A stretch of 41,020 bases of DNA from Dirinaria sp. TL-2023a (lineage: Eukaryota), in assembly GCA_051941275.1 (NCBI GenBank), contig JAVEBF010000044.1:1-41020 (forward strand), written 5' to 3'. This document shows, piece by piece, positions 1,453 through 34,848 of the stretch (positions are counted from its first letter, which is position 1; each line of letters begins with the position of its first letter). Under the pieces are notes generated by a model that was given only the letters and a program-made list of their open reading frames with translations, ran no database searches and was not told the DNA's origin. A program made the translations under genes and the position numbers.

Positions 1453-2919
1453 ATGGGAGCCATTAGCCTCGAGGAAGTCACTAAAGCGCCCGAAACGCCA
1501 CAATCACCCACCCTCAAGCTCAGCGCCTCCAACCAATGGCGCCAGACCTCCCCGACCACCTACACTCGGCCCCTCGACCCCATCGAATCGTTCTTCAACA
1601 TTATCCACACAGCCGGCGCTGAGCTAGGTCTCCAGCACTGGGCTCTCAGCGCCGGGATCAAAGTCCGCACCGCCAGCCCAACCTTCATCTCGGATCTGCG
1701 CGACATCTGGGCCACTCTCCGCTACAATAACCCCATCATAGCATGCGAAATGCAGGACGGGCAGATGACCTACCGGGTCCCTGGCTCAGCATCCGAACTT
1801 TCCCAATGGCTGGAAGCAACGTTCATCGTGCACCCCACAGCAACATCGGCGCGAGAGCTTTACGGCGAGACTGCTCGGCCGTTTACCCGCGTTGTATGCC
1901 ATGTCCTTCCTCTTACGCAGGAAATCCTGCTTCAAGGCACACATGCGCACCTTGATGGATTGGGGACGGTGACGTTATTCGACAACCTGCTTCGCCTGCT
2001 GGCTACTCCATCATCCCAACGGCAAAAGCCCAACTTTGGTGATGAAGCGAAGAACCTCCTTCCTCCACTTTCGACGATCACAAATGCCCCTCTACCAACA
2101 TCGAACCAGATCGAAAGATGGAAGCAGGACCTAAACGCCTGGGTAGGTGCTATGCCGACTCGACGCCTAGACACATTCAATACAGATCGAGCACCGGGCC
2201 GCAGCAGAGTCACTTCGCTTGCTTTTACGCCCGCGTCCACGTCAGCTATAATCGCCGCATCGCGGAAGAAGAACCTGACCGTGACACATACCTTGCAAGC
2301 AGCCATCGCACTCGCGACGCGCTCTTACGATGCTGCACAACCGCCCTCATCCCAAAACCCCACTTTGTCCACGTTTGCAATCTACAACACCAGGAGTGCC
2401 GCGCTCGCCTCTAATCCTTACAAGCCATCCGAGCTGGTAGGGCCGCACCTGACGGCGGGTCTTGCAGTCTACAACGTGGGCTCGTTCCTCGATACCGCGG
2501 CCAGTGTGCGGGATACCTTCAATTCGCATCGAGAACAAAACTACGCATTAGCCATGTTACCGGCTCTGTGCGCAGAAATCCCTCCTATCCTCGCCACACC
2601 CACGCCTGTCCCCAGCGCGGCGCCCATATTGTCCAGCTTCGGGGATCTGGATGTACGATTGCAGCGTCGATATTGTTCGGAGGTGGAGGGAGCATATGGT
2701 GGGGACAGAGGGATCGAAGTTCAGTGTCTCGATTATTGGTGTACGCTCGACCAGCTTCTTTCGGATGTCTATGTGGGCATGTGGACGTTTCGGGGGGGAT
2801 TGAGGGTAGAGGTTGGATATAATGAGGTGTACCATACGAAGGCGAGTATACAGCGGTTTCTGGGCGGGGTGAAAGATCAAGTGGAGAAGGGTCTGGGGTT
2901 TTGTCTCGAAGCTGAGTAG
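1453..2919 (+). CDS. CoA-dependent acyltransferase, Tri3 (trichothecene 15-O-acetyltransferase)-like / condensation-fold, 488 aa, intronless
   Basis: Single long ORF. N-terminal 'WRQTSPTTYTRPLDPIE' and 'W.TLRYNNPIIA' segments, catalytic HxxxD motif (HAHLDG), and C-terminal 'LSSFG...WTFRGGLRVEVGYNEVYH' are typical of fungal Tri3-like acyltransferases. TATA box upstream. Confidence 0.8.
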   Translation: MGAISLEEVTKAPETPQSPTLKLSASNQWRQTSPTTYTRPLDPIESFFNIIHTAGAELGLQHWALSAGIKVRTASPTFISDLRDIWATLRYNNPIIACEMQDGQMTYRVPGSASELSQWLEATFIVHPTATSARELYGETARPFTRVVCHVLPLTQEILLQGTHAHLDGLGTVTLFDNLLRLLATPSSQRQKPNFGDEAKNLLPPLSTITNAPLPTSNQIERWKQDLNAWVGAMPTRRLDTFNTDRAPGRSRVTSLAFTPASTSAIIAASRKKNLTVTHTLQAAIALATRSYDAAQPPSSQNPTLSTFAIYNTRSAALASNPYKPSELVGPHLTAGLAVYNVGSFLDTAASVRDTFNSHREQNYALAMLPALCAEIPPILATPTPVPSAAPILSSFGDLDVRLQRRYCSEVEGAYGGDRGIEVQCLDYWCTLDQLLSDVYVGMWTFRGGLRVEVGYNEVYHTKASIQRFLGGVKDQVEKGLGFCLEAE

Positions 2920-3141
2920 CGAGGTTTTTTCGAAAGGATGATTGGAGGATTTATAGAGTTCTCGCTTAGCGTTTTCACAGTGAGCATTGGAGCATTAGAA
3001 TGAGGTCTTTTCGCAAGTGTTGTGGATGTTGAAGATCCGACTGTTTGGTGTGACTGGTTCTTTCTATTAAATCATCTGAATGTGTGATCAAGGCATCTAT
3101 CAACTCACGTCAAGGTAGTAACGAGAGAACTCTCATAAAAG

Positions 3142-6100
3142 CTATACATGTACTCTGAGGAAATTGAATCCGTCATTCACCGCTTTTGCAGCGTCGGTAT
3201 TTTGCTTGAACATGTCAAACATATGCAACCCGTCTTTTACTATCGCCAACCCAGCAGGTACGCCATGCTCAAGCAGGGTTCGATGCGTTCGCTGCGACTG
3301 TTCCCAGGGCACATGGTCGTCTCGGGTGCCATGGATGAGGAAAGTAGGTGCATTGTACCTGCCATCACGGATATGTGCAAGGGGACTGATGCTTTTTATT
3401 TGCTCAACAGACGGGTCGGCAGGTGTCGTGACACTTTGCCGACCCGAGTCACATGTGCGTCTTAGTCCGTTGAGAAGGACGGGCAAGGTTCTCCCCTCCC
3501 AGTTCATGTGGCAAACTATCCGGGATCGGGGATCCTCGAAAGACATCCAGCCTCCGAGCGCGTGTAGAGATGCTGGCGGCGAATATCCTACGACCGGTTT
3601 GTCGTGCAGTCCGGCGTATAAGTGGTTGTAACTTGCGTCCGGTGGAGCGATGGGATTCTGGGCGAATGGCAGGTTTGGGCGAGTCCAGAATGTATCTTCA
3701 TAGTCGGTTGGAGGGTAGAATGCCAGAATCGCTTCAGGAGGCTTGATGCCTCGTGGTGGTGCAGTCCATCCAAGAGACATGGCAAGGTGGCCGCCCGACG
3801 ACCAGCCCACAGCGACGATTTTGTCCCCATCGGCACGGACATTGGGATGGCTGAGTGCCAATGTTGGTAGGGTCTTTCGTGCCCACAACAGAGCGTCACA
3901 AACATCTCGCATCGGCCCATCTGGTAAAGTAACCTCAGGACACAGCCTGTAATCTACGCTTATTGGCAGAAAACCAGCTTTGAGAAGGGTCCGTGTCTGG
4001 TCATTGCGAACGTCTTTTCTGGTGGACATGGTGTGACCTCCGCCATGGATCATAAGAGCTGTTCGGAGACTGCGATTAGATTCCACCTTGAATTCCAATT
4101 GAAGGACAACGTAGGTGCTTACCAATCGGAAGGGGTGTGCTTGCGTCCCCGAGCCCATCAGGATAATAGATATCAGCTGACAGAGCAATACCATCGTGTT
4201 CTCCGTAGGAGACGGTTTCCACATCCATTTGAGGCAAAGAATTGGCGGAGTGGTGTGTTGAAGGAGGAGTAGAGACTGAAGTCCTAATCGAAGACGAGGC
4301 TGAAGCTGGAGCTGGAGGCTGACCAGAAGCTGACAGTAACTGGGCAAGCCCCTGGACGTCGGTGATAGTCGAGAAATCGGAATGAGAAAGAGAAATCTGA
4401 AATCGCTGATGCACTTCTGCAAAAATCTCGGTGACCAGCAGAGAATCTATATTAAGACTTTCCAGAGCAGAGTCAGACGAGATTTCCATTGTTGGGATCT
4501 CAATGATGTCGCTCAACATCTGCTTTACTTTCTGCAACGTTACGGAATTACTATCAGGAACCCTCGAGTCCTCGTTTAGCGGTACGTTCTGGACTGGAGG
4601 ATGTGCTTGTATATTCTCACTGAAAGGCCCTTGTTGTGTTAGCTGGCGTAGTATCGTACATTGTGGTGTGCTGGATTTTGAGAGGTCTGTATCTATCAGA
4701 TTAGACATGCCTTCGATAGGAGCGTCTCGAATTGAAGTCTTGTTTTGGCTATTTAGTCTTCCCAGAGTCTTCGTCAAAGATTTTATAGAGAGTTTTTGGA
4801 ACGAGATTGCCATGATGGCAAGAACAAGATCCCCGGACCCTGGTTCAAAAACGAATATGTTGCATTGGAGCTTCTTAGGCGATGGTTTCTCGTACTTCGA
4901 ATAAGCAATCCACGTTTGCTCTGTTCTCCCAGTCTGAACAAACCTTGAAGTGAAGGCTATTTCATCGATGAAGTTGCACACCCACATCTCGTTAGCCTCA
5001 TCCCTGGCGAAACAGTTTGCGAGAATGCCAGAAACCTGGGTAAAGCTGTCGATCAAGACTGGATCGCAGAAACCCTTTCCCATGTTTGCTGGTCTTGAAG
5101 CCGGTAAAGATATACGAGCGACAGCTTCGTTACCCATCGAATATATGCTTTGAATCCCGTGATAGTAATCGAGGTACGTCACTACCAAGCGCATGGCCCG
5201 ATAGACAGTAGGACCCTTGAAGCCAATCGACATCGAGCATGCCTCGATCTCATTGCATCGTCGCAGCATGAGGTTATTTAGAGATTGGAAATGGGTGATA
5301 GATGTGGGCGGAGTGTTAGAATTGAACATTGTGATCTGTCCCGTAGCATGAGTGATCGGATCAGAGTGCTCGTTTTCCTCGTCATGAGTAAAGAGCCAGA
5401 AGTTCCAAGACCGTGGTTCAGAACCCTTGACCACCAGCCTCAAAAGCACGGAGCCAACAGGGTCTAGTACCAGAGGCGAAGACATCATCAAGTCAGATAG
5501 TTGTGGTATGCATAACGCTGCAGGATCCGACAACAAGCGAGAGGCCGTAAGGACAAATTCGTTGTACATCGACGCTGGGCAGAGGGTTTGCTCTACAACC
5601 TCGTGTCCTTTTGTACCCAGCTGATACAGCTCATGTTTTGGGTTGATTTTGAAGAGAGACTCGCCCTGACAAGGTTGGTTAGGAAGTAGTTGAAGCAGTT
5701 CTGATTGCGAATTCTCAGACACGTTTGTAGGTATTTTCCAAGTTGGCTCGGCTGGCTTCCAATTTAGCCAGTGGCTTGTCTTTGCAAATTGATATGGTGG
5801 TAGATTGATCCAATCATATGATGAACATTGAGACCTGTGGAACAACCAGAATTGGGCTCTTATTCCGTTTGACCACAAGCGGCAGGTAGCTCTTGTAAGG
5901 TTCATCTGAGCGTCTGCATCGCGAAGAAAAGTCGAGATGTACACATGCTCATGGCTACAACCCGCGGCTCGTTTTATCATAGGCATAATTGGTGACCCTG
6001 ATCCTGCTTCGAGCCATATTACTGGGCTATTGATCTGTTGCTCGACTCTTCTAATAGCATTCATGAAGCGAACGGGTTCACGGGTGTGCCGAGCTATTTT

Positions 6101-9100
6101 CTTTGCCGTAATGTATGACCAATCACCGTCGGAGCATGCCTCAATGGGTATCATCGGGGTTTTAAGATGAAGCTCTCCACTTGTTCGGAGCAAAGCGGGA
6201 ATGATCGAATCAAGAAGTCGAGAATGAAACGCATGACTGTTGTCCAAGCGTTTCAAGCGCACGAGCTCTGGTATTATTTCTGACGCTTTCTCGATGGCTT
6301 GGATGGATACCTCGTCGCCGGCGACGACGAAATTTCGAGGCCCATTGTAGCATGCAACATCGGCCAAATAGTTCTGGCACTGCTGCTCGGCGAGGCGAAG
6401 GAGACGATCAACATCGACTTCCGATCCTTCGACTGCCATCATGAGCCCGCCCGCGGAGCCGCAGATCGTTTGGACTAAACGGGCGCGCTCGGAGACAAAT
6501 CGGAGTGCGTCCAAAAGTGACAATGATCCAGCGACACATAAGGCAGTCAGCTGACCAAAACTGTGACCTATGAGTCTGTTGACCTTCAAACCACTATCTA
6601 TCCATGACTTGGCACACGCATACTGAATTGAGAACAGGGTGCAGTGCAAAGTCACAACGTCATTGATCGGCTCGGGGTCAAATATTGTTGGGAAAAGGCT
6701 GGGAAGAGATAGATCTTCTGTGCAGACCGAGTCGCAATCAGCCTATTAAAGGGAAGTATCAGTAAATGGTAAACGCAGCAGCGGTGTTCTAAACGGATGA
6801 GAACGCATTTAGTCATCACCTACAATGTGACGCTGTAGAAGCACGGAGCTATCATACAGGCGTTTGGAGATAGAAGCCCACTTTCCGTCCTGACCACTGA
6901 AGCAGAGAACGACAGACGAGCTACGACTAGGAATCTTGTGGAGCTCGTTAGAGCCGGCCGCGGTTTTACGGAGCTGGCTTGAAAGATCTTGGATGCTAGT
7001 ACTCGTAATTATACTCGAAGTCTCAAAATCTCTGTTCTGTTTGATCGCCAGATTGTAGGCAACATCAGCTAAAGTATTGGCCGTATCCTTCTTGGTCAAA
7101 AGGGAGTCAAGGCGGTCGCAATAGGAACGAACTGCTTCAGTCGTGTTTCCGGATATGAAAATGGGGTAACAGCCAAGATGAGAATCAGCCTTGGGGCACG
7201 AAGCCGGAGTGACGGGTGGAGGCTCCTGAACAATGATAGCAGCGTTGTTTCCGCCAGCTCCGTAATTGTTGACCAGTGCTATGCGTTTTGCGACTTTCCA
7301 TTCCCTCGTATCTGTGGGTATCGTCACATGATCTTTGCCTAGTGGCTCAATCTTCGGGTTGAGTCGTGTGAAGTTTGCTTGTTTGGGTATCGTATTTTTT
7401 TGCATCATCAGTATGGTTTTGATCAGTGACGCTGCTCCCGAAGATGCTTCAGTGTGTCCGATGTTATCTTTGACGGAGCCAACGAAGACTTCATCGTGCC
7501 GGTTGAGTCTCCCAAATCGTTCTCGGATGGATTTGAACTCAATCGGATCCCCTACCTGGGTACCCGTACCGTGCGATTCGACATAGGTAATATCTGCAGG
7601 CGACACCCCAGAATGCGCCAGGACCTTGTCATATAGCAAATGCTGAGACGGCCCATCCGGCACGAAAATTGGAGAGGAATTCGATCCCTGGTTCACGGCA
7701 GTGCCAGCGATAATGCCAAATATATGGTCACCATGTTGCATTGCTTCCCTCAGCGGCCTTAATACAACCAAACCTGCGCCTTCGGCGCGACAGTAGCCAT
7801 CGGCATCCACATCGAACGCCTTCGAGGCTCCTGTTGGACTCAAGAAACCAGCACCAATCAGGTTTTGGGTCATCTTGGAGCTTGACATGGAACATACGCC
7901 CCCGGCTATAGCGACTGAGCAATCTCTGTTTTGGAGCGCCTTTGCAATCAGCCCATGGCAACTCATTGCGAAGGCATCAACTCACCTTACAAGCGGTATG
8001 AAAGGCTACGGCTGCGGCTGAACATGCAGTGTCTAGTACCATTGAGGGACCGGTCCATCCAAAATTATGACTGACCCGACCACTGATGAAAGATCTCAAA
8101 GTGCCTGGGAGCGAGAAGGCGCTGACGGGATGCGAAGCAACATTATCAAAATAATCGTCGTTTGCTGATCCGATGTAGCATCCGACTTCTCGATCAAACT
8201 CGTCTGAACGAAGCCCATAGTAACCGCTCGATTCCATTGCTTCGTACGCAACCTCAAGACACAGCCTTTGCTGAGGGTCCATGGACTTTGCTTCCCGGCC
8301 AGAAATCCCAAAGAAACGATGATCGAACTTATTTAAATGTCGCAGATAGCCGCCCCAGAATGGTCCATTAGGCTCACGGTGTAAATCGGATGGATCAAAT
8401 CGATCTTTGGGGAATTCTTTGACGACACATTTACCCTCGTTGATTAAGTCCCAGAACTCCTCCACCGAATCAGCATCAGGGTATCTACAAGCCATGCCAA
8501 TTATTGCGATTGCATCCTTGGGTAGAAGAGTCGTGTCTTCCAAATCGCATGTAGGAGATAATGGCTGGTTGACGCGAGGCGAAGATGGATGACGACTGGA
8601 TAAAAGACTTGATACTTTAGTGGGGGAGGCTCCGTCGACGCTTCGTGGAACAAGGACCTTCTCTCCGATTGAAATATGACGGAAGCCATGTTTCGGCACT
8701 TTTCTCATATTTAAAAGAGCATCAAACATCAGGTCCCACCTTGATTGCTCGGTGAGAATAGACTGTAAGGCCACAGAATGTAACTTTCCCTCCGTGATTA
8801 TTTTCCCATCAATATTCGACAGAAGAGGGGTATTTAAGGCATGAGCATCTGGTAGACGAAATCGTTCGTCACGTTGGCAAAGCGCCAAGATGGCTCTAAG
8901 TCCCTGTAGGTGATCCCGACTATGCCATCGTCCTCGTGGTGCGAGCGGCATCGCTGGAATGTTCACCTTTGCCAAATCAGACATCAACAAGGCCTCATGC
9001 CGCTCTAGTACTGTGATCGTCGCAGTTCCTGTATTCGTAACGACAGAGACGTAGGTCTATCCACACTGTCAGCTTAAGAACAAAAGAAGTCGAGACTGCA

Positions 9101-9731
9101 CACCACTGACACCATGGAATAACTCCAATTCATGCTGCAGATGCTCCAAGTGTGCATTCGACTTCAATCTGACTGCGATGGTTGTTGCGCAACCGTGATT
9201 GGTGAGTGCGTCTGAATCGACGACGGCTCCGGCGACTAAAGCCAGACGTACAGCTTTGGCAGCCAGATCTTGGAATTGCCTTTCATTGCTCGAGCAAGAA
9301 GCAGCGATTGCAACCAAGAATCCGAGACAGAATCCTTGAACGTCCTGCAGCTGAGATGCATGGAATGATGGAAGATCAACAGCGTGTGTGAGCTTCCAGA
9401 AATCAACAATCTGAATAATGACGGTTAAGGGACATAGGAGAATGTTGTCGGTGGGCTTGAACGTCAGAGCTGCACCACCTTGAAAGAAACCGCAGAGCTC
9501 GTTTAGCCGCTTCTTTGCTGGTACTATGTCTAAACCTGGCAAAACATCCAAAATGGCGGGCCACAATGAGGGAAGCTCCCGTATTGTACTTGAAAGAAAT
9601 TCTAACTCAGGGTGTTTTCGCAGTAATATGCGAACGTCGGACAGCGAGTCTGACGACAATGCGCCCTGGGGACCAAATAAGATTGAGATAGCATCTTGAC
9701 TGCGATCGTCGCCAGGTTGCAGAGCGCCCAT
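3142..9731 (-). CDS. Non-reducing iterative type I polyketide synthase, SAT-KS-AT-PT-ACP-esterase (HSL-type alpha/beta hydrolase), about 2114 aa, 5 exons
   Basis: Exons 9731-9111, 9056-7986, 7939-6824, 6742-4123 and 4058-3142, joined by GT-AG introns (9110-9057, 7985-7940, 6823-6743, 4122-4059), give one continuous 6345-nt frame. Motifs: SAT GFCLG; KS DTACS, ESHGTGT, GHTEASSG; AT GHSFG and HAFHS; PT HEVVEQTLCP and DSFTQ; ACP IDSLL; hydrolase HGGG, GWSSG, HGTRDD, GLHMFD. Confidence 0.95.
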
Positions 9732-10718
9732 TATTGCAAAAGCGAGGATAGTCAGATCAAAGTAGGGTAAACAGATAAGTTATGTAAAGAAAAGCTATGA
9801 ACAGATGTGGAGAGAGTAAGGGCCAATAACGATTAGTACCTTGATAGGTATTTTGCGTCCCCAAGTCAATGGCACGAGGCTGATATAAATCCTCATAACG
9901 GGGTTTATCTAGTACCGAGTGAGCGACGCATGCAGGACATAGCGAGCGCGGATTGTGATCTTCGAAGCACCTAATGGGCCAGCAAACAAGGATCCCTGAC
10001 AATAGTACGTCAACCCCAGCATCCTCCTTTTAGGAGGACTTCGCACCATAGTCGGGAATGAGGACGCGACTCTCGCGGCTTGCAGCATATCAACAACGAC
10101 CAGCAGCGTCATACCCTACCGTAGTCTCCCAGTCATCGTCTAGCATCCGGGTAAAACACCTTCAAAAATGCCTACAGAAGCCGTTTTCGGGCTTTGTTTT
10201 GAAAATTTCCGCGTGAGACCGAGTTTAGATTACGTACAGAAGACACCTCAAATCACAAGGATCTCGGGATCTTGAAGCGGTTGATGCTCTTGGCTCAGGA
10301 CGGCAAGAGCCGGCAATTTGGACGAGTGACCGATAGGAGTATTTGGAAACCATCGGCGCCGTAGGGTAGGGTCCCAGCTAGGAAAATTCGAGTCATCGCA
10401 TATGAGACTGGCGGCCAAACGGAAGCAAACGGAAGCAAAACGCTGGGGATCAGTCTTGCCGCGATTGTAAGGATTCGGTTCCACCACGGTCACTAGAAGG
10501 AGAAGGAACAGCTTTTCGCAAAAGATGCACGAGAATGTAGAGCCCCACTGTACGAGTACGTTAGATAGATGTAGGAGTCCACTGTTCGAGTCCCTTAGTA
10601 CCTTACGGGAAGAAGAAGGCTGGTGGTTTCGGGCTGCTTGGCAGGGCCTTCGCGTTCAACCTTGCAATAACCCTGCAATAACCCTGGACACAGTCTCTCA
10701 ATCAAGGCTTGCCTGCCA

Positions 10719-10724
10719 TATAAA
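10719..10724 (+). promoter_or_regulatory. Putative TATA box of the NRPS-like gene, within the PKS/NRPS divergent promoter (9732-10829)
   Basis: TATAAA about 110 nt upstream of ATG 10830. The PKS and NRPS-like genes are head-to-head, about 1.1 kb apart. Confidence 0.4.
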
Positions 10725-10829
10725 TTCGTCCCCCCCAAACTTTTATTTACAATCTCCCAATGTTCGTACTTGACTTGCTTTGTCTGTTTTCACGGCTGTT
10801 TTTAAATTGTATTCACGTCATAGTTCAAT

Positions 10830-13639
10830 ATGTCACACGACCAGAATGATGTTTCCTCTGAGTTGGCCTGGAAAGCATACCTGGATGGCTTCAATCCTTG
10901 CCACTTTCCACCACTTCTTGATGAATTGCCTGACCTTCGAAGCGATTTCCATGAGACAGTCGCCAATCTTGATGTGCACGATAGCACCGTCCTCGATTTT
11001 TGTTCTCGCCACAGTCTCGAACTGCGCTGTTTGTTCCAAACAGCTTGGGCCATCGTGGTAAGCTGCTATTCCGGTCTCGAAGATATATCCTTTGCGTTTC
11101 TGGCCAATGACGGCAGTTCCCCAAACGTACAACATGATACCGCCTTCATGTTTCGCACGTATGTCACCGCAGAGCACTTCCTCTTGGACTTGATGATAGA
11201 TATGACCGGGAAATATAATGAGATCTCAGCACATCGAAAGTATTCCATTACCAAAATTCAAAATCTCCTGGGTCTTGAGGGCCAGCCACTCTTCAACTCA
11301 GTTTTACAGGTCCAACGTTCGCCTGCATCACAATCTGGTCAAGCGACGCAGAGCAGCGATCTCCAGGAGGTACGCTTCCCAAACTTTTCACGCTCATTCT
11401 ATCTCCACGTGAGTGCAGCGCTGATTCAGTCATATAGTGCGACATACAGGCCCGAGTATCAATCGAGGATGACGCTCCCATTGCAGTGCGCGTCCGCGCG
11501 CATACGTCCAAGTTCTCAGCCGCTCAGACATCAGATGTAACCCACACGCTAGGAAAGATAATATCTGAAATAGTAAGGTCCCATCCACAAAGCATGATTA
11601 AAGACTTGGAAATTCTCAGCCGACATGAACATGAGAGAATCATGAGCTGGAACAGGCCAGTTCCGAGCTCTGTTGACGATTGCTTTCATCGACTTTTCCA
11701 AGGTGTTGCCCGTAGAGCACCAGACGCTCCGGCGATCTGCTCGTGGGACGGCAATTTCACCTATGGTGAGCTCGACGTACTTTCCACTAGCCTAGCCAAC
11801 AATCTTGCCTATCTCGGCGTTGAGCCGGAAGCTTTTGTCGTCATTTGCTTCAACAAAACCTCCATCGCGTATGCCGCTATGCTAAGCATATTAAAAGCCG
11901 GTGGTGCTTTCGTCGCGATCGATCCTTCGTATCCCGCTAGTCGTATCCAGGCCATCATTGAAGCTACAAATGCCTCCATAGCTGTGACGGAGCCGCCACA
12001 CTGTCATTTGTTTGAGGGGTCCATGGAGCATATCATTGCTTTCGATTGCAAGTTGGCTGATAAACCTTCAGCCACGCCGAATGTGGTTGAATCACGGTCA
12101 AGCCCGTCGAACACTGCGTATGTAGTTTTCACGTCTGGCAGTACTGGTACGCCTAAAGGAATCATGGTTGAACATCGTAATCTTTGCACTGCGACTCTCG
12201 GACTTGCGGCGCCAATGCGAATCAAACCCTCGTCTAGGGTACTCCAATTCGCAGCCTACACGTTCGACCTTAGCTATTCCGAGATTTTTGTCACTTTATC
12301 CCAGGGAGGTTGCATCTGCGTGCCGTCGGAACACGAGAGGATCAATGACCTGGCCGGGGCGATTGTACGAATGAACGTCAACACCGCTTGCTTGATACCG
12401 AGTGTGGCTCGCATGTTCCAACCTGAAGACGTTCCAGGCCTGCAAACTCTTCTGCTTGGTGGTGAAGCACTTGTGCAGGAGAGTCTGGCACTTTGGGGTG
12501 GAAAAGTTTCTTTGACCACCCTCTACGGACCCTCGGAATGTACCATCTGGTGCAGTGCGCAAATAAATATGACAGCTGATAGCTCTGCCAGTAGTATAGG
12601 TCACGGTGTTGGCGCTCTTCTATGGATCACAAATGCCACTAACCACGACCAACTTAGTCCAATCGGATGCATTGGTGAGCTGCTGATCGAAGGTCCGGTA
12701 GTAGCTAGAGGCTATTTGGACGCCGAACAGACAAAGCAGTCCTTTATCGAAAATCCAAGCTGGGCTGAGATCCAGACTGGTCAGCGCAGACGATTCTACA
12801 AAACTGGAGACTTGGTCAGATATAAATCTGACGGAAGTGTGAGCTTTATTGGTCGCAAAGATACGCAGGTAAAATTTCGTGGACGCCGTATCGAGATAGG
12901 AGAGATCGAATTTCACCTTTCTTCACACAACCTTCTTAGACAATCCATGGTAATGCTACCTGCCACTGGGGTACACCATGGAAAGCTTGTGGCTATACTG
13001 GTGCTAAAGACAAGCAAAGAGTCGAGTTCTGGAAAGGGCGAAATGAAAATGGCCACTGATGTTACCAAGCAACCCGCTTCTGCAGAGGTCATGAAAATCA
13101 AAGACTTTATGGTTTCCAGAATACCATCTTATATGGTACCTCAACATTGGATCATAGTAGAAAACATCCCTCTGATGATATCCGGGAAATTGGATCGAAC
13201 ACGTGCGAAGAAATTTGTGGAAAGTCTTGCAGAAGAACCCCCAGCAGAGGCTAAGGTTAAACAAATGCACAAGTACGATCTCCATAGTACTGCAGAGATC
13301 AAGTTACGAAACATCTGGAGCGATGTCCTCCAGAAAGAGGCCACCGATATAGGGGTCGAGACCGATTTTGTAAGCCTGGGCGGAGATTCATTTGCAGCGA
13401 TGGAGCTTGTTGCCCGTTGCAGTGCACAGGGGTATACACTCACTGTGCGTGATCTTCTTGATAACGGCACGATTCGAGATGTAGCTTCCAAGCTCAAGAC
13501 ACCCCGGTCTGAAGACGCTGAAACTGCCGATGATGCCGCGATGGTTTCTAAAGTCCGAGAGTACTCGCAATTGCCATTGAAGTTCCCACCTGTCTGGTGG
13601 GATGTAAAACCAGTACTTTTGGCTTCTGTCAAATGTTGA
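10830..13639 (+). CDS. Single-module NRPS-like protein (truncated C - A - T), about 913 aa, 2 exons
   Basis: Exons 10830-11369 and 11438-13639 (intron GTACGC...GCTGAT...TAG). A-domain cores YVVFTSGSTGTPKG, YGPSE, GELLIEGP..ARGY, YKTGDL, GRKDTQVK, SGKLDR; T-domain LGGDSF. The N-terminus matches the C-terminal half of a fungal C domain (W..YL.G..PCHFP, FQTAWAIV). Confidence 0.92.
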
Positions 13640-13855
13640 TGGTGGAGATGATCTGCCAAGAGATGATTGGGGGACCGTATTGGAACCTGTTCCCCAGATT
13701 TCTCTACCTTAGTGTTCTTCGGTAGGACTCGCAGGCATTAGCAATCCCTCAGCTTCTTCTTGATTTGAAGTTTATTAGTTCAGGCCAACATTAGTCCTCG
13801 CACGCCCATCTTACGAATGCCTCATCCTCTATTTCGATAATCCTACCCTCATAGG

Positions 13856-14078
13856 TTAAGGTACCTTAATTTCACATTAGATAGGGTTACAGCAACCCTG
13901 TGTTTAGGGTTTCTGTAATGCAGGTAAGGTACCTTAAGGTAAGGTAGGGGTGCGGCCTGAATTCAATGTCGTCCTTGTAAAGACTCAGCACGCTCATGTC
14001 AAATACTCCCTGTTACATTGGTGTATATTACATCTTTTATGGTACGCTTTGGAAGGCAAATATACCTAGGTAAGGTAC
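13856..14078. repeat. Cluster of short palindromes built on TAAGGTAC/GTACCTTA
   Basis: TTAAGGTACCTTAA (13856-13869), TAAGGTACCTTA (13925-13936) overlapping TACCTTAAGGTA (13930-13941), and TACCTAGGTA+AGGTAC (14063-14078). Confidence 0.6.
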
Positions 14079-15333
14079 GAGTACAACGTCGGCTTGCATC
14101 TTGGCAACACGAGCCCGGGAGCGGGCGGGCGGCATGCGGCTCGTACCTCAGGAGGATCCGCTGTAACACTCCTTGCCGGCAGGGAGAAGGAACAGGTCCG
14201 CAGCATGCGAGTCATACCGCAGGATGAGAAGCATGGGCAGGAATGAAAAGCATTACGTCAAGCATATATGTATGGGTCATACCACACTACTGAAGTTACT
14301 ACTAACTCTGGCGGCATTAGGTAGGATTCCGTTGACGCTATATGTACGAGTAACCCGCATGACTCGGTCAAGGCTGATGTGGATGATGTCGATCGACGGA
14401 TCAAAGTTCAGCGCCAGCCAGCCATTCGTGGAAAAGTGGATACTTGGAGACACAACCTATGCTTGAGTAAAAAGCGCTTCAACTCGCTCAGAGCTTCTCG
14501 GGGTTCAAGGATACCGGTGGCGTCTTGAAAGGGGATCCTGTATGCTCCTTTTCGAAGTTAAGATCCTGAATGTGACTTGCCAGTGCAGCCTGAATAGCCG
14601 GTACAAGCATCTACTCAGCGGTTCTCCCACCTCCGAGCTTTTGGATGGGGGTTTTGACTGGCAGGCACGGGACACTCATTGCAGGTTCCTACCGAGAGGG
14701 GATATCGGTATTCCTCTCGTGCTGTACCTACAGCAGAGTCCCACCGATTTCCGTAGCTTCGTATTACTCAGTGCAGTGTATCTGCCATCCGTTTCCAGGG
14801 GAGAGAAGCTCGCCCGATCGTCATCAACTGCACATCAATCCGTGTCTTCTCGCCGAAGTCGGTGACAGGTCCATTCCTGAAGCTAGTCACCCAAAACAGC
14901 CTGCGGTGCCTTCCCCTGCGTACGAAGGTGAAGGAGCACGGCATCAGGACCAATGGAACATCAATCCATGCTGCCTTGACAGCGACACCTTCCAATTCGT
15001 AGGGACGCTTGATGGCCGAGTTCTCAAGTTGAGACTGGTCAGTTGCCGCCAGAGATACCGTAGGATGGCTCGAGATAGAAAATGTCATACGAACATTCAA
15101 TGGAAGCGGCAATCCATGTCACAGACGCTCTTCTGAAAGGATACCTGATATCTGTGTTGTGTTACGGCAAGATGTCAGGACTGGTATTAGGATTGGTTTC
15201 AATGAGTATCAATATCTCAGCCAAGACTCTGGGACCCTTCGGACTGTTCTTCAACGCCTGTTCAAAATCTCTATCTAGCTACGTACTCGTATCTATGTTC
15301 AATGTTGGCAGCTGCATAAAGGCTCTGGCAACA

Positions 15334-17225
15334 ATGGAAGTTACTCGTCTGGTTCCCCATTCTGTTCCACTGGGAGAGTCTTTGCCGCCCGGTAACAGAC
15401 ATGTTTGGATTCCTGACTGACTGGGTGACAATTGAGCTTATGTAAAGTATACAGGCTGTAAGCGTTTCGATTCCCACTTGGAGCAATGTAGTACGTTACA
15501 TGGCCGGTGACCAAGAGGTCTGCAACAAACTACAATGCGACTATCCAAGGTACTACACCTGACACCATTGCACTCGGCAAGTATGCACCTCACCAATCTG
15601 ATACGCTTTTACAAGGTTCTATCAGCACGCAAGCGTACAGAGATTGAGTGCCGCTGTTCTCGAGAGAATTGGAGCCCCTGAAAATGTGTGGTGTGTCATC
15701 TTTCCTTCTGAAGATGGCATGCATCGATGCAGCCAGTACCTCCGCAGTAACACAGAAGTCACATATAATAGCCAAGAGATTATATTCAGTCCGGCCCAAG
15801 GTGCATCAAAAGGGAACAATGTCTGGGCACGCTTCTGTGTTGTACTCTGTCCCGTGCAGCTCACTCAACATGCCGAACAATTTTGGGGGGTCATGGGAGA
15901 TGGAATTTCCAGTCGACATGCAGATTATCTACTAGAAAGGCTCCCCTTCATGGACTCTGCATCATCGGAATCTTCTCTACGAACATGTTCGACATCTGGG
16001 AATCCCGAAAATATACCTGCAGACCCTTGGAAAGTCTCGGATGCTGACACTAAACTGAGTATCAAGCGTATGATTGCAGGTTGTCTCAACTCAGAAGGTC
16101 CAAGCCGGAAAGCAGTCACGACGCAGGACATTTTTCTTTATCCCAAGGGAATGTGTGCAATTGGCGCCTTGGCGAGGACCCTCGCCCTGACTTCCACTCA
16201 TTCCTCCGAAGCAGTTATTTTTGGGTCAGTTTATACAAGCTATATTCTAGAATACGTTTTGCATCCAGGACTGAGCAGCTGCAGATGGCCATATGGCTCT
16301 ACCCCAAAATGTGTCCGAGTAAGTGGCTTTGAGCGCTTCACGTTCTACACTCAAGGCACGAGCGAGGGTTTAGACCAACTGGAATCATCACTGGCATCCG
16401 GCCGCTCGATCACCTGTCTCTTCTGCGAAATCCCCTCCAACCCTCTATTGGCGACTCCAGACTTGCACCGCATTCGTAGTCTTGCGGATCAATACCATTT
16501 CACAGTGGTGTGTGATGAGACGATAGGCACCTTTATCAACGTGGATGTGATGCCGTATGTGGATGTCCTTGTTGCGAGTCTTACCAAGGCTTTCAGCGGA
16601 GCATGCAACGTCATGGGAGGGAGGTGAGCATTCTGGAAATCTGGCGTGGCGTCTTTCAATACTAAACAACGCCTGCCACAGCGTGGTCCTCAACGCCTCG
16701 TCCCCGTTCCACGACCTTCTCCACGCCAAGCTGAGCAGTACTCACGAAGACCTCATGTTCCCCCTGGATGCCGAGATCCTGAACCAAAACTGCGCTGACT
16801 TCCGATCCCGAGTCCAACTCGCAAGTAGCACCGCCCTAACCCTCGCCAACCACCTTCGAACCCACGACTCCATCTCCCAAGTCAATTACCCGACCACAGT
16901 CGCCAGCGCCGCCCTCTACGAACGGTATCGGCGCGCTAAGAACGGGGGGTATGGGTCTTTGATCAGCATCGTATTCCGGGATCCCGAGAAAGCCGTCCGG
17001 TTCTACGACGCGATCGATTTATGCAAAGGACCGAGCTTAGGAACCAATTTCACGCTGGTGCTGCCATACTCGCAGGTGGCTCACGCGTTCGAATTGGATT
17101 GGGCGGAGTCGCAGGGGATAGCGAAGCATATTATTAGGATCAGTGTGGGCTTGGAAGATGAGAATATCTTGATCAAGAGGTTCGATGAGGCGCTGGAAAC
17201 GGTTGAGGTTCTTGACAAAGAGTGA
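15334..17225 (+). CDS. PLP-dependent cystathionine gamma-synthase-like enzyme (Cys/Met metabolism family, fungal STR2/met-7 type), about 551 aa, 5 exons
   Basis: Exons 15334-15402, 15455-15549, 15616-16224, 16285-16623 and 16682-17225 splice in frame (1656 nt). Motifs: LGESLPP..HAVSVSIPTW, DYPRF, FCEIPSNPLL, VVCDETIG, PLP-lysine SLTKAFSG, KGPSLGTNFTL, IRISVGLE. Confidence 0.9.
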
Positions 17226-17603
17226 GATGTGTCTCTGGGATTGGCTTGATCAGCACCTACGCCGCACTATGCATCTTGTTTTTTTAAATATCATTGATCT
17301 AACATTCTTTAAGAATAGGAGAGAGAGAAGCGACTGTTCTGTAGCTTAAATAGATATACTACAAAGATGGCATACAACATGCAATGTACTCACCACTCTC
17401 TTTCCATTTCCCAACCTCTGCCATCTCCTAATTCTTTTTGCTCCTTTCATAAAACATTCAACATTCCCCACTTTGCAATCTCCCAACGCTAACTCACCCT
17501 TCCAATAGTAAAACCAGCCCAATATTGCCTTCATTAAACTCTTTTCACTTAAGACGCTCGCTTTTTGTCAGGATATACAATTGTTATATCCTTCCAAAAT
17601 AGG

Positions 17604-17624
17604 AAAAAAAAAAAAAAAAAAAAA
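17604..17624. repeat. Poly(A) homopolymer (21 nt) between the convergent CGS-like and aldolase genes
   Basis: Direct reading of the sequence; lies in an AT-rich shared 3' region. Confidence 0.9.
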
Positions 17625-18001
17625 TATGGGTTGGGCCTCTGCTCTTTTATGTTTAGAGAAGCAGAGGGGGACAATTCAGTACGTGTATAGATCTCGATGC
17701 AGTATGTCTATGTATCTATTTTTGTTGTTGCACTCACTAGTCTTTTTAATCATTTGATTTGCAACCTGTTCTTTTTTTTTGGGATTTAAGAGAACGGATG
17801 TGATTTGGAAGCTAGATTGTACGAGTGTATTTGTGGGGCAGAGCTCGGTTTTCCAGCTGGCCTGTTTGTGAGTTTCTTTTTCTTTTCTTTTTTTTCTAGT
17901 AGAGCCCACACAGCTCACTAGTAAGAAGTTAGAGGAGTCTACTAAAAGAAATATACAAGCGGAGTAAATTCAGCCTGAGTGAACATGATTTAATTTCAGA
18001 A

Positions 18002-19233
18002 TTAAAAACCGTTCATCTCAGAAATATCACGGTTGGTATCGGCACGCAAAACCTCATCGAAGAGCGCTCCCAGATCCCGCACCGCTTGCTCGTCGATCTG
18101 ATGATGACACACGATCCGGGCACTATCCAGCGCAACACCGTACCTCTTCCCGACCTCCACGAGCCGACTCTTCTCAACCCCAGCGGCGGCGATATCAAGC
18201 CACACGATATTCGTTTCGACAGGCTTACTCAACCGGCCTCCTCTCTTGCTCCACTCCTCACCAACCCTCTTCGCGACGCCATGCACCCGACGCAAAGTCG
18301 GATTCTCAATCTCGGCCCCCGTGCCAAAATGCTCGGAGAGCGCTTCGCGCGCCGCCGCGGTGATGACGCCACCCTGTCTCATGCCGCCGCCGATGGCTTT
18401 GCGCGTGCGTCGCATCTGCCGGATCACGTCCCGATCGCCCAGGACCATGGCGCCCATGGGCGCTCCCAGGTTCTTGCTGAAATCGACCGAGACCAGGTCC
18501 ACGAGCGTGCAGTACTCCTTTAATGTCCCCGCTCCCGCGGCGACGGCTTCAAAGAGCCTGGCTCCGTCGAGGTGGGTCTTGACCCGGTGCTTGTGGGCCC
18601 AGTCCCGGATGCGACGCAGCTCGTCCAGGGGTAGGATGGCGCCTGCGGCGGTGTTTTCCATGGAGATGATGCCGGTCGGACATTTGTGGACGTCGTGGTC
18701 GTCAAGGAGGTTGGCGTGCTTGTCCAGATCCTCGACCCGGAGGTACTTGCCGTTGGAAGGTGTGACGGGTTGCAGCATCGCACCGCTCAGGACCGAAATG
18801 CCGCCGCCCTCGGAGGTGATGCTGTGGGACGCGGCGTCAAGCAGGACTCCGCAGGGCCTCGCGGAGACCAAGGCGTGCAGACAGAGTTGATTGGCCATCG
18901 TACCTGTGACCACGAACATGCCATCTTCACGCCCCGTGATGTGGGCGACGTGGGCCTCGAACTCGATCGTCGTTCGATCTTCTCGGAATACGTCGTCGCC
19001 CATTGTCGTTTCTACGATGGCGGCAAGCATACGAACACTGGGACGAGTTATCACATCACCTGCAAAGCTGTTTATTAGCCTGGTTTTAACGTGATGGAAA
19101 GCGATGACCCTTTACTCCTAAAGTCACTTCTTGCGAGGCCCGGACGACCCCATGCAATGGTCCCTTCTAAAGAATTTAGTACCTTCATAGTGGATGGTTT
19201 GACAACGTCGGTGTTTTGCGAGGATTGGGACAT
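18002..19233 (-). CDS. PLP-dependent low-specificity L-threonine aldolase family protein (GLY1-like), about 391 aa, 2 exons
   Basis: Exon 1 19233-19116, intron 19115-19060, exon 2 19059-18002. The spliced N-terminal motif is DFRSDVIT.P. Other motifs: GDDVFRED, TGTMANQL, SMENT, HLDGARL, PLP-lysine FSKNLGAPMG, RKAIGGGMRQ.G. Confidence 0.92.
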
Positions 19234-19304
19234 CTTTGTTTTTCTTGGGTTTTTTCGCTCTCTGTCCCCACCTAGCATTAGAGATGAGGCAGCAGCGCAT
19301 CCTA

Positions 19305-19310
19305 TTTATA
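19305..19310 (-). promoter_or_regulatory. Putative TATA box of the threonine aldolase-like gene
   Basis: TATAAA on the minus strand about 75 nt upstream of ATG 19233. Confidence 0.4.
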
Positions 19311-19702
19311 TGCAGTGGTAAATTGAGCAAACATTGCGAGAATAGCGAGTAACCGTAGGAAGAGCGAATTAGTACAGGGGGCTGGTAAAGACCGGAACGC
19401 TCTCGGGCATCAAGCAATTCGCAGCTGCCAGACTCAGTCAAGAAGCCTTCAATATCGAAATCTCGGAAAAAGCGTGGCTCAGGCCTGAATCAGTCTTGCA
19501 TACCCCTTAGTATCCGCTTTTACTGGAAGAATTTCTTGCTCGTGAAGCTTACGAACTAAGATTGGTCGAAGCAGGCTTAGTGGAGAGCCTGCAAGAATCT
19601 GCTAGGTAAGGTCCTCCTATCTTCTACTTCGCTGCTTAACATATTACCTTACTTCTAAAAGGCTATGAACCAAAAATGCCAGCCACTGCGACTGAATCCA
19701 TT

Positions 19703-21799
19703 CTATGACAAAATGGAAAATCTACACTCTCGTCTAATGGTCTCCGCGATTTCCAGGACGTGAGCTCGACTCTCTCGAGAGAAGACGTCGAAATATGAGA
19801 CCCAAGCGTTCACGCCCGTGCCAGGATCTAGTACACGGTCTCCCTTTTTCAGCCAGCAAAAGCTTGACGAGACATGAGCTGCAAGATCAGGACGGCTGGT
19901 GAAAAGCTCTGCACACACATCTCCAGAGTCGTAAATACCACCCTTCTGCACAGGGATACACAATATGTCACACCAGTACTGTGGCCCTTGCTTGAATGGA
20001 TGTGACAGCTGCTTGATGCGATCTTTGTCATTGACAGCAAAAAGCAAGCCGAGACCCCAATAGTCGACCCCGTACGTATGCTTTGACGCATCTGACGCCT
20101 GGATACCAGGCGGTCGCGGGTTGACCTCGATCAACCAGCAAGATTGTGCGCATCTGGCAGGAGTTCGACGCTCGGCTAAATCCAGGAGGCCCTCCTTCAT
20201 TACGTATTCCATGGTTGAATTCTCTACCCGTGCCTCGATATGGAAGAATCCATTCTTGAAACCCATTCGAAGGAGACTTTGGGTTAGGGATTCGCGAAGC
20301 ATAGCCTGCTCGTGTTTGGGAAGCTTGGACGGGAGGACAACGGCTTCTTCGATAAAGGTATTCACGCTGCCATAGCTGTTCACGTCCGCACCCTTAGGAA
20401 AATCATCACAAACCTCGACGAAGACTATTTTCTCATCGCAAAGCACCACATTTGCATCCACTTCTGGGCCATCGCAGTACTTCTCAATAACGAATTCAAC
20501 GCCGTGGCGGTCAGTGTTTATACCCTTGATACCTGCCTCGAGCTGTCCAAAATCCTCGATTCGAAATACGCCCTCAGAGAGAAAGCCGTTGGTAGGTTTT
20601 ATAATTAGTGGAAACTCAAGCCCGTGTTCTTGTATGATGTTAGAAGCTTGCTCAACACTTGACGCTCGATAAGCGCGATGTCCTTCCGAGACACTCGTCT
20701 TAAATTTGTCAGTGGAGATACTGTACGCCGACGGGGGCTCTGTCAGCAATCCCAGTTGTAAGGCAGCTTCAGCAACGTAAGGCTTGTAGTGGTCCCGGAA
20801 TGTCACGATACCGTCAAGATGACCTTCGTACGAACGCACTGCATTCACAATATCGCTTGTAAAGTCGGGGCTAGGATTAAGCTCGAGCTTGAGGGGGATG
20901 AATGTTTTGTACCAATGTGTATAGCGGGTATCGCGAAGCCAATGTCCAGGATTATCGAACACAACCATGTCGATGCCGAGAGCTGCAGCGGCTGAATATA
21001 TGCTTTCGCCGACCCCCCCGTTATCAGGGCCAGTACGACCGCCTTCGACGATAGCGAGAGTCTGGCGACGTGGCTCTTTCATAGCCAGCCAAGGAAATGA
21101 CAGACGATCCTCTAATTCACAGTCCAGAGAATTTGAGAGCGGCTTGAACGAGTCGATGCCGGTTGATTGAACGGTTTTCAAGATCATACCTCCCACAGAT
21201 GCTGCAAAGACATTGGAGAGTTGGTGCAAGTTCAAGATAGCGATGGGCTTCCCATCGAAAAATTGATGAGGCTTCGAGAAGCTTACAACGTTTGACACCA
21301 GCGCGCAGTCTATCAGGCGTAGCGGGATGATGTCTGACCGTACAAGATATCCAGTAGATCGTGGTACTACTAGTGTAGCATTAACGACTTGTCCGTGGTC
21401 GGCGTGCTTGAGGCAGTCGAGCAGAAAGGGGAACGCTGCTGTGGATCCAAGGTCTTGGGGCTGAATTCGGTGTTGCTCATTTGCAGACAGCTCAGCCAAG
21501 AGTGTAGTATCTTCTGCGTTCTCAGCCCAGGAGAATTCGGGAGATCTGGAGATCTGTTTGAAGGAGGCATGGAAAGATTGCCATGCTGGAACGCCTGACT
21601 CAGGGACGGTGGTGTCGCTTGCCTGCCAACTGCATCGATATCGGGCTGCATCGACATGTCTTGTAAGCGAAGTAGACAGGTTCGAAGCACGGAAGAAACA
21701 ATAAAGAGGAAATTGGAATTGCAATCGAAACGGGGAAGACAATTTTCACTAACCTTCGCCTTGATTGTCTCCTCCTTTTACAATAAGAACGCCCGACAT
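19703..21799 (-). CDS. Fungal ATP-grasp ligase (L-amino-acid-ligase-like, FsqD/AnkG type), about 662 aa, 2 exons
   Basis: Probable short exon 1 at 21799-21754 (MSGVLIVKGGDNQGE), intron 21753-21646, exon 2 to 19703. ATP-grasp motifs: TDKFKT, FPLIIKP..GFLSEGV, IEKYCDGPEVDAN, GFFHIEAR, LIEVNPRPPG. The 5' exon is less certain. Confidence 0.88.
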
Positions 21800-22862
21800 G
21801 TTTTATGCAGTAATCCTTAATGCCCAGTCATGGGATTATTAACTCGAGTCAGATCTCTTGCGCCACTGAATCGTCCGGTGCTAAAGAAATATGTGTGCAG
21901 GCAACAAACATAGCACTGAGGAAGGAAGTTCTATGATCTATGGTGAATATAAAGTACATGTACGCAGCTGACATGTGGCGGCTAGCCCGCATAACGGGAT
22001 ATCATCGGCCTATGGCGGGGCCGAGGGGGTTGTCGTTGATATCAACAGGTGCAAGCGAGCATGTCTACGGTAGGCAAAGCGATTGTGCAACTTGACTGCA
22101 TACATGATTGGGACCACGATCGGGATTTTTATGCTGAGGGGGAAAATTTCACTTCTCTTCCATCATGCAGCCTTCTGTCAAAGCTGCATGAGTCACGAAT
22201 GATGGAATCGGCCATGTATTGTATGGAACAGTGTTCATTGATGTTGGATTAGAGTAAAAGGGAAGATCCTTCGGGACCGAGACGTGAGAAGGTCGCTTCA
22301 GTGTGATGGCTGATGACAAGCGGATGTTTCCGCTTCCCCGTCCCGTCTGCAACTAGAAAATTACTTCAGGATCCAAGCTGTGGGGGTTTTTGCCGCCATT
22401 ACCTAACAGACCGTCCTTCATGCTGAATACCCAAACCATCAACAGGATTCAGGACAGTCGGGCCCACGTGTATCGAGTCATTCTGATTCTCGGATGCCGG
22501 TGGATGCTCCCCGGTGTCATGTATGCCTTTCTGTTATATCAGTGGCTTGAAAATTGCGCGATTTTCTGAGCTGCATGATATGCTCGTTCCTGCAGTGCTA
22601 ACAACAACAATGAATCTCCTGGCTAGCGCGGTGAGCGCGGGTGTGTGGGCAGAGCGTCTAGAGAAAGATTCCGAGTGGTCATCGAACGCTATGAATACAG
22701 CCGCTGAATGAATGGCGCTCATTGCGTCAGTCCCCACTTCATCCTGTAATCCTTGGTACCTTGGAGACAACCAATGTCAAGTTTTTTGTGTTTCTCTGAA
22801 GTCCATTAATGTGATACTAGTACCATTGCTTCTCAATACATGGCCTCTAGTGGAACATAGGC

Positions 22863-23432
22863 ATGTATGCAATCGGTAAAGAAACCTTCAATACATTCGA
22901 GATCCGCCAAATCTTTCACTCCATCAAAGCACGAAGGATTAGATTCAAGAGAGACATGTCAAGCGTGTACGAAGAGTGTTGTCAATCATCCACTGTGTTC
23001 AAGGCGTCGCCGATGCGACGCGATCAGCGCAAGTGTAATAATTGCGGCGCTCCACGCACACACATTACCCAAACACCAAGGACCACATTGCATACGCTAC
23101 ATGCCACCATTGTTATCACATTGGCACCTATATGCGATAGAGCAGATTATATGAATGCCGTGCAGGCGGAGATTTTCAGCAGCGCAAGAGAGATGAAGGA
23201 TTATATGTCCATGGGTCCTGGCTGGTCGATGGCCAAACTTCATCTCGGTGAGAGGGAAATGCTGAACGGCGATCGACAACGAAGAAGGGAATGCGAGACT
23301 TATGAGAAAAAGACCGAGTGGAGGGCTTGTGCACAATGCAAGCAGACTGGGTACTGTGGCACGTCATGTCAGAAAAAGAATTGAAGAATCCGCGAATACG
23401 TCTGCAAGCGGTTATTCAAAGAACAGGTCTAA
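22863..23432 (+). pseudogene. Degenerate MYND-type zinc-finger protein gene
   Basis: The C-terminus reads CETY...CAQCKQTGYCGTSCQKKN*RIREYVC. It fits the MYND consensus except Cys2->Tyr (TAT 23301), conserved Trp->TGA (23382-23384) and His->Arg. The frame continues to TAA at 23430-23432. Confidence 0.6.
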
Positions 23433-34329: not shown

Positions 34330-34848
34330 ATGCAGATCCACTCAATCCGTGGCAGTGGTCCAATCTTGGTGGCGATCTTGGCTTGCTTTTTCGTAAGTTC
34401 CTGTCCTGGATCTGGACCCTTGGGTCAGGGTTGAGCTAATGAGAGGCATTAGGGGTCCCTATGTAAGGCTATACCTGTTGTCGCGATCCAGCATACAGCC
34501 GTTGCACATTTCTCGAACTCGAGCATGGCCTCATTAGCCTCGAATTCCACGTCTACTTCCAGCTCCTCGACCGTACCAAGTCCGACCAAGCCCACTCAGC
34601 TCTGCGGAAGTCGCGGTATGGCTGCATGTCCTTCAGACCTCAGCTGTGTCGTCAACACACAGAAAGTCAATCCAGGTCTAGTGGCCGACGTTCCAGGCTC
34701 ATGCGTCCGATTGGATGGACCTGCTTGTGGTGGAAATACTGGAGCATCGTGCTCGGATCCAGAACAAGTCTGCGTGGATGATCCAAAGGATACTTGCAAT
34801 CCTTGGTTTGGAGGGCTAGATTGCCCAGGGATCTGTGTTGTGTTCTGA
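34330..34848 (+). CDS. Small secreted cysteine-rich protein, about 152 aa, 2 exons
   Basis: Exon 1 (34330-34392, MQIHSIRGSGPILVAILACFF) and a canonical intron at 34393-34452 (GTAAGT...GCTAAT...TAG) supply the signal peptide missing from the ORF-track call at 34525. An S/T-rich linker follows, then two CG(G/S)..G..C repeats with 10 Cys, including CVDDPKDTCNP..GG.DCPGICV. Confidence 0.8.

Follow-up and report, generated by a model that had tools for sequence, protein, structure and literature searches.

A six-gene locus of the lichen fungus Dirinaria, probably related to the unc, coc and ave ATP-grasp peptide clusters

The question raised by a six-gene locus of the lichen fungus Dirinaria sp. 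TL-2023a is whether it represents a new kind of biosynthetic gene cluster or belongs to a family that already has named members. The locus occupies positions 1453 to 21799 of a 41,020-nt stretch of DNA (the window; assembly GCA_051941275.1, contig JAVEBF010000044.1), which is seemingly the whole contig; the window's own proteins in the databases, filed under a Dirinaria metagenome-assembly label, give a longest contig of 41020. The genes encode, from left to right, a Tri3-like HxxxD acyltransferase, a non-reducing polyketide synthase (NR-PKS), a nonribosomal peptide synthetase (NRPS)-like enzyme, a cystathionine gamma-synthase (CGS)-like enzyme dependent on pyridoxal 5'-phosphate (PLP), a second PLP enzyme of the threonine aldolase fold and an ATP-grasp ligase. 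A preliminary description had seen here six contiguous intact genes forming an undescribed type of cluster. The genes are as it described them: all six are stop-free spliced models with GT-AG introns and terminal stop codons, each lies where it had been placed, and catalytic motifs are found in six of six. Five of the six labels are backed by Pfam matches above or near the cut-off, the acyltransferase being the exception. The claim of a new type has to be given up, because three of the six genes are related at the level of orthologues to genes named unc, coc and ave in UniRef, and core genes with named, mutually adjacent orthologues do not make a new kind of cluster. We propose that the window probably carries a lichen-fungal member or variant of these ATP-grasp peptide clusters, the product of which would be a short peptide with an orsellinate cap; the exact set of six genes may be unreported.

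Three core genes and their named orthologues

The ligase gene (21799..19703, minus strand; two exons, intron 21646-21753) encodes 662 aa with the Pfam domains ATPgrasp_N and ATP-grasp_4, and its only match in the PDB search is an L-amino acid ligase. Over the full length it is 63% identical to cocI, 61% to uncK and 59% to aveB, and all three fall with it in a 39-row clade with a support of 96 in a tree of the 94 rows with 600 aa or more (this and all later supports are SH-like values from FastTree only). AnkG had been offered as an analogue of this enzyme. PMC12568646 relates AnkG to Cp1B, and Cp1B is absent from the PDB matches of the window ligase; AnkG is therefore not its analogue. A public model of the ligase gene (P0001) is 593 aa long, against 662 aa here.

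The NRPS-like gene (10830..13639, plus strand; two exons, intron 11370-11437; 913 aa) is the orthologue of aveC, cocH and uncD, with identities of 52% to aveC, 52% to cocH, and 56% and 51% to uncD in two segments; the three are found with it in a 52-row clade of a 77-row tree, with a support of 100. Pfam detects a partial Condensation domain (profile positions 198-394 of 456), AMP-binding and PP-binding, a layout that we write C*-A-T for a condensation (C) fragment, an adenylation (A) and a thiolation (T) domain. It is not a canonical C-A-T module: the C fragment is partial and has no HHxxxD motif, and hence no condensation is expected from this enzyme alone. Since the orthologues share both the C*-A-T layout and a conserved tryptophan-rich C-terminal tail, the gene is neither broken nor truncated. 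The A-domain pocket, with positions taken from the GrsA numbering, keeps the Asp of enzymes that bind alpha-amino acids; seven of ten positions equal those of cocH and aveC, aveC differing from the window enzyme at three of ten.

The third core gene (15334..17225, plus strand; five exons, 551 aa) encodes the CGS-like enzyme, with the Pfam domain Cys_Met_Meta_PP. Its best solved relative is CndF (8zif, E 1.5e-59), 47 orders of magnitude ahead of the runner-up (3.4e-12), and the alignment with CndF contains a 20-residue insertion, which supports an in-frame 60-nt intron in the gene. Although CndF is the closest structure, cocG is closer still, at 64% identity over the full length, and in a tree of 48 chosen rows the two lie in a 14-row clade (support 100) apart from housekeeping-like rows of 30-33% identity. 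Among the matches listed for this protein there is no CGS-like protein from unc or ave, and orthology of this gene is seen for coc only. The public model of the CGS-like gene (P0182) has 275 aa against 551 aa here, and a second paralogue under the same organism label (P0158, 45% identical) lies on a 15 kb contig.

The UniRef names are thus uncK, aveB and cocI among the relatives of the ligase, uncD, aveC and cocH among those of the NRPS, and cocG for the CGS-like enzyme. These genes also keep company with one another. The accessions of cocG, cocH and cocI are consecutive (EAS32145/146/147, Coccidioides immitis RS), those of aveC and aveB are adjacent (KAE8148645/646, Aspergillus avenaceus) and seven tags separate uncD from uncK (UREG_02297/02304, Uncinocarpus reesii); in the window the NRPS, CGS-like and ligase genes lie within 11 kb, their counterparts being consecutive or near in coc, ave and unc. 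There are differences as well. The CGS-like, NRPS and ligase genes are consecutive in coc, whereas in the window an aldolase-like gene stands between the CGS-like and ligase genes; the lettering of coc to at least I implies at least nine genes, and that of unc to at least K implies 11, against six in the window. In Table 2 of PMC3091305, CIMG_03162 is entered as a non-reducing PKS with KS-AT-ACP domains and no ME; by its tag it stands nine places from cocI (CIMG_03171).

A cluster type with no characterised counterpart, as the preliminary description had it, appears very improbable to us beside these named and mutually adjacent orthologues of three core genes. What speaks for it is that the literature searched, with coverage of subscription papers mostly lacking, holds no paper describing this gene set, and that no named orthologue of the acyltransferase occurs among the top 10 of its 150 matches that were looked up.

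We take the names unc, coc and ave to come from Zhang et al. (JACS 2025), on isoindolinone peptides. That study is said to have used ATP-grasp-guided mining and to include a Coccidioides pathway, and a berberine-bridge-type flavoenzyme reportedly closes the isoindolinone ring. No match to any FAD-enzyme family was found among the 130 open reading frames (ORFs) of at least 62 aa that lie outside the six genes and were screened at Pfam cut-offs, and the contig ends 1452 nt to the left of the acyltransferase gene. As the ring-closing enzyme is not seen, membership in the isoindolinone-making subset is not established; as the first gene begins so close to the contig end, the cluster may be cut off, and six genes are a minimum.

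A conserved cassette and its variable surroundings

Conservation of linkage was approached by a proxy in which matches with equal longest-contig size were presumed to share a contig. The input comprised those 52 of 120 listed NRPS matches that reach 44% identity, leaving aside 67 more distant rows and that of the window itself, together with 70 of 120 listed ligase matches plus two cluster members, and 24 of 120 listed CGS matches plus one; NRPS matches were counted if their contig measured 20 kb or more. Among the matches listed, 21 of 31 such NRPS matches pair with a ligase match and 24 of 31 with a ligase or CGS match, and eight contig sizes carry all three. Close locus tags tell the same of individual genomes: Coleophoma 02941, 02942 and 02944, Monosporascus 009467, 009466 and 009463, Cercospora 5800, 5900 and 5700, Xylaria g4940 and g4938, Ophiocordyceps 0307 and 0304, and Arthroderma 04659 and 04652. 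Many ascomycetes have this cassette of NRPS, PLP enzyme and ligase.

A metagenome scan returned 22 loci, 16 of them (fungal-type) with a clear ligase match, and in five of these 16 (L001, L002, L003, L008 and L010) the aldolase-like gene adjoins the ligase; L001-L003 look near-identical and hence are not independent. L003 (473-21959) has ligase, aldolase-like, CGS-like and NRPS genes in the order and orientation of the window. The conserved unit is a four-gene cassette of NRPS, CGS-like, aldolase-like and ligase genes. L003 further has a flavin halogenase between the CGS-like and NRPS genes, and past the ligase it has genes for a CoA ligase, an epimerase-like protein of the enolase superfamily and an MFS transporter; it is probably a chlorinated variant of the pathway. 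The family is thus widespread and variable, its additions being the halogenase, epimerase-like enzyme and CoA ligase of L003, an aminotransferase and CoA ligase in L010 and the acyltransferase here, and with the window these ATP-grasp peptide clusters, which received their names only recently, reach into the lichen-forming fungi. In L010 (193-11742), which has an aldolase-like gene, a PLP aminotransferase and an MFS gene, the ligase stands in one frame with the CoA ligase, the 1305-codon open frame being either a fusion or a stop-free spacer.

For the PKS, linkage to the cassette is suggested by just two observations, the tag distance in Coccidioides and a promoter shared with the NRPS: to judge from gene orientation, a divergent promoter region of 1.1 kb (9732..10829), whose ORFs have no Pfam match, separates the two genes. 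Linkage of the acyltransferase to the cassette is unsupported. The expectation of conserved co-localisation is therefore borne out for NRPS/CGS-like/ATP-grasp and for aldolase/ATP-grasp, and not for the PKS and acyltransferase, matches to which occur in none of the 22 loci, L003 being the only one long for this cassette and ending at the 3' end of the NRPS gene. This absence counts against assigning the whole locus to the unc/coc/ave family, and several further points count in the same direction. Contigs of the closest acyltransferase relatives (10 of 150 matches covered) equal a cassette-gene contig in size in one of 28 cases, and that one is from different sources. Neither the CoA ligase nor the MFS transporter of L003 and L010 was found on the window contig; an oxidase, CoA ligase, halogenase or transporter was not detected among its 130 other ORFs, a screen that short or heavily spliced exons could escape. 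The A-domain pocket of the NRPS has a Gly-to-Ser change present in none of 53 other rows (54 in total), and among the ligases few depart from conserved columns as often as that of the window (15 of 211 columns, rank 45 of 50; here and below, departures are differences from columns conserved at 90% among relatives). The origin of the unc, coc and ave names in Zhang et al., finally, is our unconfirmed assumption.

The missing PKS and acyltransferase matches, together with the contig-size result, would fit a composite locus in which the four-gene cassette makes a small peptide of its own and the PKS and acyltransferase, as a separate pair, make an acylated orsellinate. So would the appearance of the ligase in other settings: in L004, L006 and L007 it is accompanied by a distant NRPS and heme-pathway-like genes recognised by eye, and in L009 by no other cassette gene. 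We nevertheless regard a composite locus as unlikely, as the divergent promoter is common to the PKS and NRPS, a PKS listed without ME is also near cocI, and most of the loci compared do not extend far enough to include a PKS. As a separate observation, the ligase of L004 (4703-21865; also L005-L007) is 64% identical to that of the window and stands beside the distant NRPS and an amine oxidase. These loci further hold a 43-aa CGS-like fragment and, by eye, two genes resembling aminolevulinate synthase and one each resembling porphobilinogen deaminase and porphobilinogen synthase, which would be heme-pathway paralogues inside an apparent cluster.

The unusual pocket and the departures of the ligase could also be signs of decay, the window being the eroding remnant of a larger L003-like cluster, from which the genes for halogenase, epimerase, transporter and CoA ligase have gone and which has ceased to yield the family product. 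Two further features are in keeping with this view. Between the NRPS and CGS-like genes lies a gap of 1.7 kb without recognisable gene (13640..15333), at the position matching that of the flavin halogenase in L003; it has no Pfam match above the cut-off, and tblastn and blastn against the peptides of L001-L014 and the DNA of L003 found no remnant in it. The right flank, moreover, is gene-poor and contains a CC-depleted tract at 24-26 kb. Yet all six frames and their introns are intact, departures of the NRPS (5 of 223, rank 20 of 44) and of the CGS-like enzyme (8 of 176, rank 9 of 16) are typical, at or below the median, and the missing genes may lie past the contig end. Values of dN/dS against L003 are low, at 0.21 for the ligase, 0.14 for the aldolase-like gene, 0.18 for the last CGS exon and 0.28 for the 3' end of the NRPS gene, being pairwise values to which recent relaxation is invisible. 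CC dinucleotides within the cluster are at a normal observed/expected ratio of 0.94, low only at 24-26 kb. An eroding remnant is in our view improbable, more so than a composite locus.

The fumisoquin (fsq) cluster of Aspergillus fumigatus resembles the window in combining an NRPS-like enzyme with an ATP-grasp enzyme, FsqD, as a comparison by gene content and not by sequence. FsqF is an A-T-R-PLP fusion, and the idea that the NRPS and CGS-like genes are a split FsqF-like fusion, with the gap between them hiding a reductase or other gene, was rejected on the lack of a Pfam match or of any remnant of L001-L014 or L003 there. A relative, P0298, is modelled as an A-T-PLP fusion. The fsq gene list in PMC5999785 names no PKS and includes an N-methyltransferase, an amine oxidase, a monooxygenase, a transporter and a regulator; enzymes of the types of the fsqB amine oxidase, the fsqC N-methyltransferase and the fsqG monooxygenase were not found on the window contig, which sets the locus apart from a fumisoquin cluster.

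Proposed biosynthetic logic

The product had been predicted to link an aromatic polyketide acid with one or more non-proteinogenic amino acids, and this fits the domain content. The aromatic part is assigned to the NR-PKS (9731..3142, minus strand; 2114 aa in five exons, 9731-9111, 9056-7986, 7939-6824, 6742-4123 and 4058-3142, the start ATG being assumed), for which Pfam finds SAT, KS, AT, PT-like, ACP and Abhydrolase_3 domains. The order SAT-KS-AT-PT-ACP-CMeT-hydrolase, in which CMeT is a C-methyltransferase, is the architecture of methylorsellinate-type NR-PKSs, and by established NR-PKS logic an enzyme without CMeT gives unmethylated orsellinic acid. The window enzyme departs from that architecture: Pfam gives no match to an MT family, and the HGGG motif of the hydrolase follows the ACP serine after ~110 aa, which leaves too little room for a C-methyltransferase, so that by this logic orsellinic acid is expected. 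The terminal hydrolase belongs to the HSL-type esterase family and keeps the Ser, Asp and His motifs. We are rather confident that orsellinic acid is the product of the PKS and that this serine hydrolase releases or transfers it. Searches of the ESM Atlas returned generic families only for the PKS and the aldolase-like protein.

A non-proteinogenic amino acid would be supplied by the CGS-like enzyme. According to PMC11331486, CndF carries out gamma-substitution on O-acetyl-homoserine; for the window enzyme it is very likely that the same chemistry applies, in which acetate would be eliminated from O-acetyl-homoserine and a nucleophile added at C-gamma.

The role of the other PLP enzyme (18002..19233, minus strand; two exons, intron 19060-19115; 391 aa) is more ambiguous, as an alanine racemase or an aldolase. 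It matches Beta_elim_lyase in Pfam, keeps the PLP-lysine motif and has L-allo-threonine aldolase structures as its PDB matches (E 2.9e-46). PMC6168864 places fungal alanine racemases close to threonine aldolases, the racemase SimB being 43% identical to a threonine aldolase, and describes SimB and ToxG as supplying D-Ala inside clusters; the window enzyme is like them by fold family, not by sequence. A sentence of PMC13338154 on rare ligases cites Zhang et al. 2025 beside a paper on D-Ala-D-Ala ligase, the D/L letters being missing in that text and the 'D' our own reading. The closeness of SimB to threonine aldolases and this co-citation make D-alanine supply the leading guess. We give even chances that the enzyme provides D-alanine as a SimB/ToxG-type racemase, and somewhat less that it is a true aldolase, which would supply a beta-hydroxy amino acid. 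The active-site residue four positions past the stacking His is aromatic in L010 but not in L002, L003 or the window, and so was not used to decide between racemase and aldolase.

The ATP-grasp ligase would couple two amino-acid units through an acyl phosphate, while the A-T enzyme is expected to activate and carry an alpha-amino acid. Because the latter lacks a catalytic C domain, a partner has to form the aryl-amide bond; this may be the hydrolase domain of the PKS, the HxxxD acyltransferase or a CoA-ligase-type enzyme encoded off this contig. Closure to an isoindolinone would need oxidative enzymes; these may lie beyond the contig end, or else the product would stay an open benzamide (orsellinamide) peptide. 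The product is likely to consist of orsellinic acid and a short non-proteinogenic peptide, perhaps with D-alanine within the peptide.

The acyltransferase gene (1453..2919, plus strand; one exon, 488 aa), the cluster membership of which is uncertain, bears on this choice of partner. Its sole Pfam signal is a sub-threshold PapA_C match, and the PDB search gave one match, the Tri3 15-O-acetyltransferase 3fot (E 1.5e-6); an HxxxD motif is present at His164. The best relative among the matches listed is 51% identical and clustered with a protein of Heterodermia speciosa. Should the six genes be a complete, pared-down pathway, this Tri3-like enzyme would stand in, in trans, for the missing condensation catalyst and transfer the orsellinyl moiety to the amino acid carried by the A-T enzyme, and the altered A-domain pocket and the lack of a ring-closing oxidase would belong to the same design. 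In that case the orsellinamide peptide of the lichen would be open-chain and contain both a gamma-substituted homoserine and a D-amino acid. Such a hand-over from PKS to NRPS by a trans-acting HxxxD enzyme has no description in the literature searched, and we hold this version to be doubtful, its chances lying between those of the composite locus and of the remnant.

The orsellinate chemistry of lichens is mostly that of nitrogen-free depsides, and an orsellinate-peptide, if made, would be a new class of lichen metabolite. The six-gene version is also a compact system in which to study how a PKS product and an A-T enzyme lacking a functional C domain are coupled.

Flanks and minor features of the contig

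To the right of the ligase, the preliminary description had seen pseudogenes and gene-poor DNA. The flank is indeed gene-poor, but it does not hold pseudogenes only: two of the 130 outside ORFs pass the Pfam cut-off, a DUF2306 membrane protein gene (28531-29609, minus strand) that apparently contains introns and a gene for a class II glutamine amidotransferase that reads as a single open frame (36275-37327, minus strand), lies 14 kb from the cluster and is probably unrelated to it. An ORF at 22851-23384 (plus strand), 1 kb to the right of the ligase, has a weak C-terminal MYND-finger match below the cut-off and may be a fragment. A repeat search gave only chance-level matches and poly-A/T runs. 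A search for a common promoter motif found no 8-mer in at least four of the six upstream regions, and the 7-mers, for which there was no control, were a TATA-like word and chance-level words.

Two small cysteine-rich ORFs on the plus strand (34310-34848 and 38836-39369), without Pfam match, have hydrophobic N-termini and look secreted by eye. In the tract at 24001-26000, CC dinucleotides are depleted (observed/expected 0.58) and TC dinucleotides are in excess (1.44). The GC content is 0.59 in the aldolase-like gene and 0.57 in the acyltransferase gene, against 0.49-0.51 in the PKS, NRPS, CGS-like and ligase genes.

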